The notes under the pieces: model-generated
The model's database searches: none
Seen by the model: the letters and a program-made list of their open reading frames with translations, nothing else
Told to the model about the DNA's origin: nothing
Translations under genes and position numbers: made by a program
Source of the DNA: Candidatus Saccharimonadota bacterium
GTDB taxonomy: Bacteria; Patescibacteriota; Microgenomatia; UBA1406; GWC2-37-13
Length of the DNA: 32,000 nucleotides
Assembly (NCBI GenBank): GCA_016700135.1
Contig: CP065004.1
Location: 330,001-362,000, forward strand
Direction of reading: 5' to 3'
In this document: piece after piece, positions 24,945-29,493 of the stretch
How the letters are laid out: the number at the start of each line of letters is the position of its first letter
Position numbering within the stretch: the stretch's first letter is position 1

Positions 24945-25087
24945 TTTTACCTCCTTACAGGCTAAATTAATAACTTTACCCTAGAGGTGTTGCATATTAA
25001 CTTCGCTTGGGGGAGATTGTCAAATCAATGCAAAAAGCTCCCCGCCAGGCGGTAGCTTTCGCTACCCGTAACCCTTTCGAGCTACGA

Positions 25088-25140
25088 CCCGCTACAGGTC
25101 TCCTGAACGAGGAGCTTGCTACCCTGTAGCGGGATTTTTT
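25088..25140 (+). terminator. compound hairpin plus T6 (intrinsic terminator-like) with no upstream plus-strand CDS
   Basis: The 11-bp outer stem is CCCGCTACAGG / CCTGTAGCGGG. It encloses the inner hairpin CTCCT-GAACG-AGGAG and is followed by ATTTTTT. Confidence 0.5.
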
Positions 25141-25333
25141 ATCTGCCATGCCCCATAAAGAGGTTTAGGCAATTACTCATATTCTATCAATTCCAAGGGG
25201 AATTAAAAATAACAACCAGAAACGGTCAAAAGTGGAGATAATGTAAACAAATATGAACAAAAGGTATCTTGAATTGGCACCTGGGATTTGTTTCAATGAG
25301 GATAGATAGGAAGTAAAGCCTAACGAAACGATC

Positions 25334-27053: not shown

Positions 27054-27183
27054 AAAATCTAATCTTGCAAAAAATATCACTGAAACAAAGATTCTCGTAT
27101 ATAACACACTACATACGAGAAGAAGGGCATCTCTGTTTGATATTCCCTAAAAGTTTCTTTATGTTGTGTGTTGCAAAATTACT

Positions 27184-28791
27184 ATGAAAACTGCCATATT
27201 CTGCCGTGTCAGCTCAAAAGAACAAGAGGAGACAGGCTACTCCTTACCAGCCCAGGAGAAGTTCCTCAGAGAGTATGCCGAAAAACAAGGCTTAGAGGTC
27301 GGCAGGGTATTTGCTATTTCCGAGTCGGCTGCAGGCAAAATTCAGCGAAAAACCTTCAATGAGATGCTTGAGTTTGTCAGAAAGAAAAATATCTGCTCCA
27401 TCGTCGTTGAAACCACAGACAGGCTTACCAGAAACTTCTCCGATGTGCCAACCATCGACAAGTGGATCATGGAAGACGATCAACACCAAGTCCATTTGGC
27501 GAAAGAAGGCTGTGTGTTACACAACGCCTCCCGCTCTCACGAGTGGTTCATGTGGCGGGTAAAGGTAGCGACAGCCGAGTATTATGTCCGCTTGCTCTCC
27601 GAGAATGTAAAGAAAGGACAGAAAGAAAAGCTCGCCCAGGGTTGGATACCAACCAAGCCCCCACTAGGATATAAGACTGTTGGTGAGACTGGACACAAAA
27701 TCCACATCATAGACGAAGGCTCAGCACCCCTAGTGAGGAAAATGTTTGAACTATACGCCTCTGGTGACTACTCGATAAAGAGGCTGGCGCAAACCATGTA
27801 TGACGAGGGCATGCGCTCTCCACAAGGCAATAGGCTGGTTAATAGCCGTCTCCACTCCCTCTTACGAGATCCCTTTTACATCGGTAAAATAAGATGGAAC
27901 GACGAAATTCATGAAGGTAAACACCAGCCTTTGATTAGCAAAGAGCTGTTTGATAAAGTTCAGGCACTACTTGTGAGCAAAACAACACCCAAATACAACA
28001 AACACGACTACCTTTTCAAGGGAATGATCCGCTGTGCTGAGTGCGACGGCTTAATCACCTGGGAAATGCACCGAGGGCATCATTACGGACACTGCAATCA
28101 TTATCACGCCTGCACCCAGGAAGGCTGGGTTAAAGAACCAGAGGTTGAAGAACAACTACTTTCAGGCTTTGACGGATTGAAACTTAAGAATAGCCGCATA
28201 GTCGATTGGCTCAAGAAAGCGCTCAAAGAAAGCCATCAGGACGAGATCGAATACCATAACAGCACTGTCGGCGAGCTACAAGCCCGCTACGAGGCAATTC
28301 AGAAGCGGATGGATAAGTTATACGACGATAAGCTGGATGAAAAGATTACCCCAGACTTTTATGCTAGGAAATTCAAGCAATACTCAGAGGAAAAAGACGA
28401 AGTCGCCGAATCAATGAAAAGGCACTCAACCGCCAGCACAGGCTACCTGAACCTGGGCATAAACCTCTATGAACTCTCTCAAAGAGCCAGGGAAATCTAT
28501 CTCCAAGCCAAAGCAAAAGACATGTTAGACGAGCAACGAGCCTTAATCAGACTGGTATTTGGCAAGTTGATACTTAATAACGGAAAACTCTCCTGGGAAT
28601 ACTCCAAAGCCTTCAAGATACTCTCCGAAGCGGTCAACGAGACTAATTGTTCGAAAGTGGATAAAATCGACGATTTTGAAAATGGGAAATTCGAACATCA
28701 CAAAAAGACCGATGTTGCGGGGCAAAAGGGCAATTTGTTGCCCGCTCGTCCCATCTGGCTCCCCGACGTGGATTCGAACCACGAACCTTGA
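27184..28791 (+). CDS. large serine recombinase (integrase)
   Basis: It has the catalytic N-terminus AIFCRVSSKEQ, DRLTRN, a recombinase domain and the Zn ribbon CAECDG...HCNHYHAC, followed by a coiled-coil. The last 23 codons or so run antisense through the tRNA-Asn terminator and 3' exon. Confidence 0.9.
   Translation: MKTAIFCRVSSKEQEETGYSLPAQEKFLREYAEKQGLEVGRVFAISESAAGKIQRKTFNEMLEFVRKKNICSIVVETTDRLTRNFSDVPTIDKWIMEDDQHQVHLAKEGCVLHNASRSHEWFMWRVKVATAEYYVRLLSENVKKGQKEKLAQGWIPTKPPLGYKTVGETGHKIHIIDEGSAPLVRKMFELYASGDYSIKRLAQTMYDEGMRSPQGNRLVNSRLHSLLRDPFYIGKIRWNDEIHEGKHQPLISKELFDKVQALLVSKTTPKYNKHDYLFKGMIRCAECDGLITWEMHRGHHYGHCNHYHACTQEGWVKEPEVEEQLLSGFDGLKLKNSRIVDWLKKALKESHQDEIEYHNSTVGELQARYEAIQKRMDKLYDDKLDEKITPDFYARKFKQYSEEKDEVAESMKRHSTASTGYLNLGINLYELSQRAREIYLQAKAKDMLDEQRALIRLVFGKLILNNGKLSWEYSKAFKILSEAVNETNCSKVDKIDDFENGKFEHHKKTDVAGQKGNLLPARPIWLPDVDSNHEP
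28724..28743 (-). terminator. intrinsic terminator of tRNA-Asn
   Basis: The minus strand reads GGGCAA-CAAA-TTGCCC followed by TTTTG, starting 12 nt after the encoded CCA. Confidence 0.5.
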
Positions 28792-29052
28792 AGTTACATG
28801 TAATCTCTGTGTTTCCACAAAGCATGGACTATATCTTTACCTTTTCTCCTAAGAGATGAAGGTAGTGGGCGCTTTCCGCCAACTGGCGGAGGTGTACTCA
28901 CCTAGTCTCTGCACCTTGTCCGATAATTATCGAACCTTGGCTCAGTATTACCATTTCAGGCTTCACTGAATTCACCCACTTTTCCATTCAGTATTTCTAC
29001 TGAAGGCTGCGATCTTTCACAGCTTCCTGCTCTACCGTTGAGCTATCGGGGA
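28756..29052 (-). tRNA. tRNA-Asn(GUU) interrupted by a group I intron
   Basis: The exons are 29052-29019 and 28796-28756. Joined, they form a 75-nt cloverleaf. It has a 7-bp acceptor stem TCCCCGA/TCGGGGA with U1-A72, discriminator G73 and an encoded CCA. Its D arm is GCTC-AACGGTA-GAGC, its anticodon loop CUGUUAA, and its T arm CGTGG-TTCGAAT-CCACG. Confidence 0.85.
28797..29018 (-). ncRNA. group I intron (IC3-like, ORF-less, 222 nt)
   Basis: The 5' splice site follows a U that sits in a U-G pair of P1 (GCUGU|G with CGCAGC), and the intron ends in G. The core strings ACTGAGCCAAGG, AAGGTGCAGAGACTAGG and GGTAAAGATATAGTCC parallel the Azoarcus tRNA-Ile and Anabaena tRNA-Leu introns. P7 is GACTA/TAGTC. 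Confidence 0.85.
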
Positions 29053-29060
29053 TCGTGTTT

Positions 29061-29117
29061 CATTCCTGCTCTACCTCCGCCTTCGCCAGCTGGCGAATGG
29101 CGGAGAGCTATCGTGGA
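29061..29117 (-). repeat. tRNA-Asn 5'-half copy B with a nested palindrome replacing the D-loop
   Basis: The minus strand reads TCCACGATAGCTC [TCCGCC A TTCGCCAGCTGGCGAA GGCGGA] GGTAGAGCAGGAATG. It lies 8 nt upstream of the genuine tRNA and contains the GIY-YIG stop codon. Confidence 0.8.
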
Positions 29118-29359
29118 ATGTATGTTTTAATGTGCTGCCTACCTCTATAACTTTTTAATTGTTTTTCTCTTCTCAAAGCATCTTGCCTTGTTTTACATGC
29201 TTCTTGATAGATCAATATCCATTCTCCATCATACCTACTTGTATATGAGCCTTTGAATATGCCTCTATTGTGCAAATCTATTCGCTCTTCAAGCTTTTCC
29301 GTCTGTCCGATGTAAATCTTATCATGCTTTTTATTGTATAAAGCATAGACAAAAAACAT
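29108..29359 (-). CDS. GIY-YIG (URI-domain) nuclease family protein, 83 aa
   Basis: FFVYALYNKKHDKIYIGQT (the GIY...YIG motif), followed by R..LHN and RREKQLK, typical of COG2827-type small GIY-YIG proteins. Confidence 0.85.
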   Translation of the reverse strand: MFFVYALYNKKHDKIYIGQTEKLEERIDLHNRGIFKGSYTSRYDGEWILIYQEACKTRQDALRREKQLKSYRGRQHIKTYIPR

Positions 29360-29364
29360 AATAA

Positions 29365-29408
29365 CATTCCTGCTCTACCTCCGCCGGCCGGCGGAGAGCT
29401 ATCGGGGA
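29365..29408 (-). repeat. tRNA-Asn 5'-half copy C with an 18-bp perfect palindrome replacing the D-loop
   Basis: The minus strand reads TCCCCGATAGCTC [TCCGCCGGCCGGCGGA] GGTAGAGCAGGAATG. Its AGGA serves as the SD for the GIY-YIG ATG 7 nt downstream. Confidence 0.8.
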
Positions 29409-29423
29409 TATTGATTGTAAAGT

Positions 29424-29456
29424 GCTTCCCAGACAGCATATTCTGCTATCGGGGAT
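29424..29456 (-). repeat. degenerate tRNA-Asn 5'-half copy D next to the promoter
   Basis: The minus strand reads ATCCCCGATAGC AGAATATGCTGTCTG GGAAGC. The 12-nt and 6-nt flanks are identical to the genuine tRNA, and the D arm differs. Confidence 0.65.
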
Positions 29457-29466
29457 GATAAGGGCT

Positions 29467-29493
29467 ATTATACCATTTTTCGCCTGATTTCAA
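29467..29493 (-). promoter_or_regulatory. extended -10 promoter (TGGTATAAT) driving copy D, copy C, GIY-YIG, copy B and tRNA-Asn
   Basis: On the minus strand TGGTATAAT is at 29467-29475 and TTGAAA at 29488-29493, with a short 15-nt spacer. Copy D starts 11 nt downstream of the -10, the usual spacing for a tRNA gene. Confidence 0.5.

Follow-up and report, generated by a model that had tools for sequence, protein, structure and literature searches.

In fungal mitochondria, free-standing homing-endonuclease open reading frames (ORFs) insert at the end of a gene and bring a duplicate of that end with them, as described for atp6 of Allomyces macrogynus and for atp6 and cox2 of Phlebia radiata (PMC4019555). 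This is the nearest described logic to the locus treated here, a tRNA-Asn gene in which redundant tRNA 5' halves flank the gene of an 83-amino-acid (aa) GIY-YIG nuclease. It lies in a stretch of 32,000 nt (the window) of a Candidatus Saccharimonadota bacterium, positions 330,001 to 362,000 of contig CP065004.1 (assembly GCA_016700135.1). As with the fungal ORFs, a small endonuclease ORF resides in a host gene, a terminus of that gene is duplicated, the gene stays functional, the displaced fragment remains and occurrence is patchy. Here, by contrast, the ORF resides in a tRNA gene of a bacterium, and it is the 5' half that is duplicated (a 3' part in variants outside the candidate phyla radiation, CPR); moreover, the nuclease is a bare catalytic domain, the redundant copy carries a conserved palindrome and the stop codon is borrowed from the tRNA.

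Other described systems share single aspects of this arrangement. SegB of phage T4 and other Seg/Mob proteins are free-standing GIY-YIG endonucleases encoded in or near tRNA genes or intron-bearing genes, which spread by double-strand-break repair and engage in collaborative homing with introns. They are phage-borne, exceed 200 aa and possess DNA-binding domains, and neither tRNA-half duplication nor a palindrome is known to accompany them. The gene studied here is likewise free-standing and located in a tRNA gene, but it encodes only 83 aa and has no relatives that we could find on viral contigs. Integrase islands and prophages target tRNA genes by means of a tyrosine or serine recombinase and restore the tRNA, leaving a direct repeat; they extend over kilobases, and the duplicated end is the 3' end. 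Our cassette, too, sits in a tRNA gene restored by a duplicated part, yet it encodes a GIY-YIG ORF only and no recombinase, the duplicated part in CPR is the 5' half, and a second copy of the tRNA 3' end, the mark of an island border, is absent from the window.

In size, fold class and lack of an auxiliary domain the protein resembles the UPF0213 (YhbQ-type) and Slx1-like proteins (PMC1564403; 1ZG2, 1YWL), although linkage to tRNA genes and to a palindrome is not part of the description of that family in the literature searched. Sparse GIY-YIG ORFs have also been reported in non-intron insertions of CPR rRNA genes, with no mention of tRNA (PMC11270868). These share the superfamily, the organism group and the residence in a structural RNA gene, but half-gene duplication and a palindrome, both present here, are not reported for them. 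A full-text literature search found no description of the combination of half-tRNA, palindrome and GIY-YIG gene, in agreement with an earlier note on this DNA, made from its letters, which knew of no element so built.

Architecture of the tRNA-Asn locus

On balance, we consider it probable that the locus is a tRNA-Asn gene holding a few tandem copies of a cassette of about 0.3 kb that resides in tRNA genes, is gained and lost, and is widespread in CPR. The first part of the cassette is a copy of the tRNA 5' half (position 1 to about 30–37) with the D-loop replaced by a 16-nt palindrome, TCCGCC-N4-GGCGGA. The second part is the GIY-YIG gene, which takes its final codons and its stop from the opening 10 nt of the tRNA copy that follows. 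The array of the window probably comprises one intact copy and two relics: unit D (a probable dead cassette), unit C with the intact gene, and unit B with an 8-nt remnant, followed by the intron-bearing tRNA-Asn. Its features follow in order along the minus strand:

29467–29475, minus: putative extended -10 promoter TGgTATAAT, read from the sequence
29409–29455, minus: unit D, with tRNA positions 1–11 (29455–29445), a foldback and a probable internally deleted GIY-YIG relic
29362–29408, minus: unit C, with tRNA positions 1–13, palindrome TCCGCCGGCCGGCGGA (29395–29380), tRNA positions 18–30 and TGTTA
29108–29359, minus: intact gene of the 83-aa GIY-YIG nuclease (Pfam PF01541)
29061–29117, minus: unit B, with tRNA positions 1–13 (one mismatch), a nested palindrome, tRNA positions 18–30 and TG
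29053–29060, minus: spacer AAACACGA, compared with GIY-YIG gene 3' ends and with loci L005 and L021
29019–29052, minus: 5' exon of tRNA-Asn(GUU), positions 1–35 (from the spliced-exon fold)
28797–29018, minus: group I intron in the anticodon loop, after CUGU (Rfam RF00028, 90.6 bits)
28756–28796, minus: 3' exon of tRNA-Asn, CCA encoded (from the spliced-exon fold)

Repeat search, Pfam and Rfam bore out the observation of the earlier note that tRNA 5'-half copies and a GIY-YIG gene share the strand of tRNA-Asn, and its proposal of a nuclease cassette within the tRNA gene, the tRNA being restored by a second 5' half, is upheld here. The sequence TCCCCGATAGC occurs exactly at 29455–29445 (D), 29408–29398 (C) and 29052–29042 (the real tRNA), and with one mismatch at 29117–29107 (B), all on the minus strand; matches with up to one mismatch are otherwise absent from the 32 kb. 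Units B and C have the common form of tRNA positions 1–13, a GC palindrome in place of the D-loop, and GGTAGAGCAGGAA-TG, and share an exact 21-nt block, GGCGGAGGTAGAGCAGGAATG. Unit C (RNA fold of -17.4 kcal/mol) probably extends to the anticodon loop, as its sequence GGAA-TGTTA suggests. The palindrome of unit B is nested, reading TCCGCC-A-TTCGCCAGCTGGCGAA-GGCGGA with the inner TTCGCCAGCTGGCGAA at 29097–29082, and the unit folds with -28.1 kcal/mol (z = -3.6). Similar units between ORF and tRNA are found in loci L081, L005, L021, L037 and L059. Rfam gave no match in units B, C or D, either at the gathering threshold or at E up to 5.

Unit D had been described as a further copy of tRNA positions 1–31, which comparison with loci L099 and L094 and folding rule out. 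It is tRNA-like over positions 1–11/12 only, and the remainder repeats those bases imperfectly in inverted orientation, forming a hairpin of -16.7 kcal/mol (z = -4.3). Its relic part ends in ...TACAATCAATA directly before unit C, and its similarity to the 5' and 3' ends of the GIY-YIG gene reaches p of about 0.07 by shuffling. The spacers after D in the window, after the units of L094 and after B in L081 resemble each other and align with the 5' end and the terminal codons of the GIY-YIG ORF; that they are internally deleted GIY-YIG genes is suggestive (shuffling p about 0.02–0.08). The spacer AAACACGA together with the preceding ATG (ATG AAA CAC GAT CCC CGA TAG) is a possible remnant of a third copy, judging by GIY-YIG gene 3' ends such as AAA CAC ATA TTC C and by the 3' fragments of the gene that precede the tRNA in L005 and L021.

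The sequence TGgTATAAT at 29467–29475 is probably the native tRNA-Asn promoter. TATAAT is followed by 11 nt and then position 1 of the outermost unit (D) in the window; TGGTATAAT stands 12 nt before position 1 of unit C in the related locus L081 and 12 nt before the real tRNA in a site without a cassette (L086). The distance of 11–12 nt across all three agrees with the remark of the earlier note that the outermost unit sits at tRNA-gene distance from the promoter. A scan for -35/-10 pairs did not call this element and returned nothing useful near the units. No terminator-like site was found between promoter and tRNA in the window locus, which is consistent with co-transcription of the GIY-YIG gene and the tRNA. 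Upstream of the promoter lies the gene of a 192-aa RNase H-fold exonuclease (30112–29534, minus), for which an exact-protein look-up gave no match.

The last 10 nt of the GIY-YIG ORF (T-CCA-CGA-TAG) are positions 1–10 of unit B and supply part of an Ile codon, Pro, Arg and TAG; the overlap noted earlier is thus real, although shorter than the four codons and stop then claimed. The match of its product to PF01541 is strong (E = 1.6e-14, 54.3 bits against a cut-off of 22.6), and the catalytic residues are intact, with Y5, Y16, G18, R26 and E65 invariant among 34 homologues. An AlphaFold2 model (predicted local distance difference test score of 96) displays the element order E-E-H-E-H-H. In the PDB it is matched best by UPF0213 proteins (1ZG2 and 1YWL), by HIGLE, a plant resolvase, and by Slx1, with the catalytic domain of I-TevI and UvrC ranking lower; HIGLE, Slx1 and UPF0213, the nearest folds, are branched-DNA nucleases. 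The sequence match to the UPF0213/Slx1-like family is weak (E = 0.005), as is that to TIGR01453 (23 bits against a cut-off of 56), and searches of PADLOC, PHROGs and NCBIfam gave weak generic endonuclease matches only. Pfam, the model and the structure matches revealed the catalytic domain and no DNA-binding module. Judged by similarity only, the protein would represent a minimal Slx1/UPF0213-type subclass, a single stand-alone catalytic domain with predicted activity. A minimal domain form is also that of prokaryotic Slx1-like proteins (Dunin-Horkawicz et al., PMC1564403). The protein is 100% identical to one encoded on a 1.45-Mb Candidatus Roizmanbacteria contig and has hundreds of relatives at 60–78% identity; the source names among the matches listed are all of CPR, most matches being without a name.

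Recurrence, empty sites and relics

At least 504 loci with a homologous GIY-YIG gene were confirmed when one genome of each species was scanned with a profile; all lineage-named records are of CPR. The counts that follow refer to the best 80 loci. A unit of type C (tRNA positions 1–13, TCCGCC-N4-GGCGGA for the D-loop, tRNA position 18 to about 30) lies within 140 nt upstream of the ATG in 77 of them, and the description of C and B as decayed was therefore wrong: they are instances of a conserved hairpin unit. In 79 loci the ORF runs into a tRNA or stops shortly before one (78 Asn, 1 Lys), the contig of the eightieth stopping too early to tell. A called tRNA overlaps the ORF 3' end in 61 (57 Asn, 3 intron-bearing Asn mis-called as Thr, 1 Lys), and in 12 more a short gap or a unit of type B separates the ORF from tRNA-Asn; the rest are introns missed by ARAGORN or contig ends. 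With an overlap of 10 nt, found in 48 loci, the TAG stop is U8-A9-G10 of the tRNA. Eight loci overlap by 21 nt (stop at U20-A21-G22) and three by 37 nt, with a TAA in the anticodon loop.

The units are related to the tRNA of their own genome. Positions 1–13 usually match it exactly, identity to it exceeds the cross-locus control to about position 30, and the D-stem variants (GCTC/GAGC and GCGC/GCGC) co-vary with the resident tRNA. Derivation of the upstream unit as a copy of the ORF-tRNA junction was considered and rejected for typical loci, as flank identity over -24 to -1 was not above the cross-locus control.

The AGGA of unit C, located 8 nt before the ATG, had been proposed as the Shine-Dalgarno sequence of the gene. 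This is plausible in the window and in L081, where AGGA stands at the proper distance, but does not hold in general, as many loci have TATAAT 6–7 nt before the ATG instead. In the spacers of L008, L029, L036, L046 and L063, the -10 element before the GIY-YIG start aligns with the anticodon loop of the half-tRNA (CTGTTAA -> TGTATAAT); in those loci, a promoter for a near-leaderless GIY-YIG mRNA seems to have been made out of tRNA sequence.

What do the closest relatives of the window locus look like? Locus L081 is a filled site in an independent assembly, with promoter, unit C, a GIY-YIG gene whose product is 78% identical, unit B, a 25-nt spacer and an intron-bearing tRNA-Asn, in synteny with YqeY, a 133-aa ORF and the exonuclease (86% identical to that of the window). 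It lacks unit D, the intron palindrome described below and the downstream recombinase. A metagenome scan with the real tRNA 5' exon of the window lineage yielded 19 further loci with this tRNA type, none of which encodes a relative of the GIY-YIG protein. One of them, L086 (exonuclease 73% identical), is a clean empty site, with TGGTATAAT, 12 nt and an intron-bearing tRNA. Another, L094 (exonuclease 72% identical), has the same promoter and leader followed by two decayed units, one of which bears a palindrome, and no ORF. In a third, L099, a homologue of unit D stands directly before an intronless tRNA-Asn, with no GIY-YIG gene. The comparison with empty sites that the earlier note had suggested thus reveals both gain and loss: presence or absence of the cassette is polymorphic at one defined site. 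Since the first unit of the filled sites begins where the tRNA of the empty site begins, the cassette lies inside the gene, whose original 5' end survives as the first unit. The window repeats, moreover, are not the assembly artefact that had been feared, because the independent assembly of L081 and L099 display like units.

Further signs of a dynamic history come from other loci. Tandem arrays occur in L011, L051, L005 and L037, and in L021 together with a 3' fragment of a second GIY-YIG gene; in L025, adjacent copies of the protein share about 31% and 64% identity with the query. The arrays of L011, L025, L051 and L021 hold GIY-YIG copies that diverge from one another. The acceptor sequence of the unit in L043 and L013 differs from that of the resident tRNA, which indicates import from another lineage. 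Modules also reside at tRNA-Lys(UUU/CUU) and at tRNA-Met, the latter with a 3'-type layout, so that the module is found at three tRNA identities, in two orientations and with patchy occurrence. An identical 84-aa GIY-YIG protein of Ignavibacteriales is encoded in two contexts: after a complete tRNA-Asn in L105 and L106, and in an Rrf2 neighbourhood in L107 and L108, with only an 11-nt tRNA 3' fragment upstream.

Across CPR phyla the two arms of the palindrome hardly vary (TCCGCC in 76 and GGCGGA in 75 of 81 units), while the adjoining protein is about 60–70% identical, and the rare stem changes (L009, L038, L069) are compensatory. The 80 loci together span 365 kb, in which 93 sites of the palindrome fall inside modules and 5 outside; the three copies in the window all belong to this locus, and 78 kb of tRNA-Asn loci lacking the gene contain no good copy except in the L094 relic. 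New copies do arise nearby, as in the nested units of several loci, in the window intron and in L064 (two copies after each GGTAGCGC). The tRNA-Lys modules of L070, L110 and L113 contain the same 16-mer, set in a duplicate of the 5' half of their Lys tRNA. A relative in Ignavibacteriales (51% identity) has a mirrored arrangement of real tRNA-Asn, terminator, GIY-YIG gene and pseudo 3' half, the T-arm of which is split by TCCGTTAGCTAACGGA, the same 16-mer with a compensatory change of CC/GG to TT/AA. The palindrome belongs to this GIY-YIG gene family. The earlier note had allowed that the units might be generic repetitive extragenic palindromic (REP) elements; the dispersed, unlinked copies typical of REP elements or of miniature inverted-repeat transposable elements (MITEs) are not observed in the window or in the 365 kb of related loci.

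Mechanism and competing explanations

By what route could such a cassette be gained, multiplied and lost? We envisage a selfish, homing-like cassette which would persist since it never inactivates the tRNA and makes use of the tRNA promoter, from which the nuclease gene would be transcribed along with the tRNA. The first unit retains the native promoter and leader and the last copy is the working tRNA, so that tRNA-Asn is never lost. Gain, tandem duplication and precise loss would proceed by recombination between the tRNA-derived direct repeats, possibly stimulated by breaks that the cassette's own nuclease introduces. This nuclease would probably be structure-specific, acting at the palindrome in hairpin or cruciform form or at the tRNA gene. 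We favour action at a hairpin or cruciform over long-site homing because of the likeness to structure-specific nucleases, the lack of a DNA-binding domain and the constancy of the palindrome, and regard it as the least secure step of the proposal. Only tentatively, as a possibility short of probable, do we suggest a new class of bacterial mobile elements: a cassette of about 0.3 kb whose sole protein, an Slx1-like GIY-YIG nuclease, would act on the 16-nt palindrome of the cassette, folded into a hairpin or cruciform, instead of recognising a long target, the break driving copying into tRNA genes (Asn, Lys, Met), with the tRNA regenerated by half-duplication.

If mobile, the cassette would rank with the smallest mobile elements that encode a protein, and its nuclease would have a precise genomic address despite lacking a DNA-binding domain. 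Part of the large UPF0213/Slx1-like family, so far uncharacterised, would also gain a biological context. For CPR genomics, the locus explains why tRNA-Asn is missed or mis-called, why pseudo-halves are at risk of misannotation and why contigs break. The overlap of the stop with U8-A9-G10 sets RNase P processing against translation termination. As the window ORF has its stop in pseudo-unit B, outside the real tRNA, RNase P should spare that stop, unlike at canonical loci.

Several considerations weigh against the cassette reading. Cleavage, transcription and transfer are inferred throughout. The working tRNA gene is intact beside the nuclease gene, leaving no target disruption to explain self-immunity, and a protein devoid of a DNA-binding domain makes classical site-specific homing doubtful. 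A vector is likewise wanting, given that no relatives were found on viral contigs. The GIY-YIG proteins cluster by family (Gottesmanbacteria, Daviesbacteria), with about 60% identity between CPR superphyla. This accords with a gene inherited vertically over a long time and kept by purifying selection, a pattern that an endonuclease gene of purely selfish nature would rarely show. The relic status of unit D and of the spacer between B and the tRNA rests on weak alignments (p about 0.02–0.08) and is suggestive. The statistics of hairpin pairing (a figure of 100%) are inflated, the units having been picked for pairing, and carry no weight.

The family clustering with its identity of about 60%, together with the points on vector and self-immunity, leads us to retain a host-serving operon as the main rival, although we hold it to be unlikely. 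Under this explanation an old CPR nuclease gene is tied to tRNA-Asn function, the hairpin pseudo-half is a cis-regulatory leader (a protein operator or an RNA element), and the overlap of ORF and tRNA couples translation to processing, the RNase P cut at +1 removing the stop. The CPR-wide linkage, the conserved register of ORF and tRNA and a protein about 60–70% identical across superphyla in family-level clusters all agree with it, as does a palindrome kept in sequence and not just in structure, as a protein-binding site would be. An RNA role was suggested by the authors who described a fusion of the Slx1-like domain with a TrmH (tRNA Gm18) methyltransferase (PMC1564403). A host function is harder to reconcile with the patchy distribution, in which 0 of 19 metagenome loci of the same tRNA type carry the cassette and L086 is a clean syntenic empty site, with the relics L094 and L099, and with divergent copies in tandem arrays. 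The same family is found at Lys and Met tRNAs, and on the 3' side in other phyla; L043 and L013 harbour foreign units; and the hairpin is 5' or 3' of the ORF depending on the locus, which amounts to no fixed regulatory geometry. The earlier note had also asked whether the gene might be ancestral and immobile here. Its linkage to tRNA-Asn is indeed CPR-wide and partly vertical, but patchiness, empty sites, relics and switches of tRNA tell against immobility.

A further possibility, to which we give little credence, is that the palindromes form a miniature mobile element of their own, resembling a MITE or REP element or generated by foldback repair, which strikes redundant tRNA fragments by chance, with the GIY-YIG gene unrelated. 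The appearance of the 16-mer at new sites (nested units, the doubled copies of L064, the lineage-specific copy in the window intron) would suit such an element, as would the palindromes of D and of the Ignavibacteriales unit, which are built partly of adjacent sequence. Almost all copies, however, lie within a few hundred nt of a GIY-YIG gene of the family, none occurs elsewhere in the window or, one relic aside, in loci lacking the gene, and the gene is joined by this 16-mer in another phylum too, at a different part of the tRNA.

Collaborative homing, in which the adjoining group I intron has the GIY-YIG protein as its free-standing endonuclease, which cuts the anticodon loop of intron-less tRNA-Asn genes while the intron confers immunity, merits very little credence. 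Cassette and intron do share one gene in the window and in L081, the right border of the least-decayed units lies at the anticodon loop a few nt from the intron site, and profile matches to homing-endonuclease families exist, albeit weak. Introns are nevertheless found in only 6 of the 80 loci with the gene, as against 11 of the 19 metagenome loci without it (at the same site, the other 8 being intron-free). In addition, the gene lies outside the intron, its product has no DNA-binding domain, and the phylogenies of intron and cassette are, as present data suggest, unlinked.

Plain local duplication and decay, with the units as functionless neutral scars of slippage or unequal crossing-over, corresponds to the decayed halves of the earlier note and deserves scarcely any credence: tandem arrays and partial deletions exist (L021, L051, L094) and D looks decayed, but the arms of the palindrome remain near-invariant beside a protein of about 60–70% identity, and changes in them are compensatory.

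The intron, the downstream side and minor observations

The joined exons fold as a 75-nt tRNA-Asn(gtt). The intron scores well above the Rfam gathering threshold (90.6 bits against 50), follows an exon ending in CUGU and itself ends in G. ARAGORN reported only a tRNA-Met in the window and missed the intron-bearing tRNA-Asn, which it mis-calls in related loci as an intron-containing tRNA-Thr(tgt). An extra palindrome, TCCGCCAGTTGGCGGA, is located within the window intron (28890–28875, minus); the intron of L081 reads acaccTATaagcg at the matching place, with no palindrome there. The introns of the 19 loci without the gene (L086–L104) display at least five unrelated-looking 5' sequence types.

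Many contigs of metagenome-assembled genomes end in or at tRNA-Asn after the GIY-YIG gene (L002, L009, L013, L019, L052, L056, L064, L065, L067, L072, L074 and others), and an N-gap interrupts the tandem array of L051; the locus appears to break assemblies, via repeats or strain variation. In L010 (2800–2900), two tandem repeats downstream of tRNA-Asn each combine a tRNA 3'-end fragment (gcggagcc) with a different palindrome, ctgtaccggctggtacag. L031 (2944–3270) contains a distant GIY-YIG paralogue followed by a duplicate tRNA-Asn 3' end. The leader and trailer of tRNA-Asn are complementary in L043 (2740–2840) and L047 (2745–2845), as in AAAAATCCTTAGC-tRNA-TAAGGATTTTT; this complementarity lengthens the acceptor stem, and the GIY-YIG ORF reaches into that leader.

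Beyond the tRNA 3' end, the gene of a 541-aa large serine recombinase with Resolvase, Recombinase and zinc-ribbon domains (27166–28791, plus) overlaps the 3' end of tRNA-Asn on the opposite strand. It lies outside the cassette and is absent from L081. Sequence homologous to this region lies downstream of tRNA-Asn in L059, and L089 has a looser likeness to it. The recombinase region may be an integrated element at the tRNA 3' end. About 2 kb past the recombinase gene, on the side away from the tRNA, a full-length match to the LOOT RNA family (RF03000) is found at 25051–25171 on the minus strand, with 79.4 bits against a gathering threshold of 46.4.

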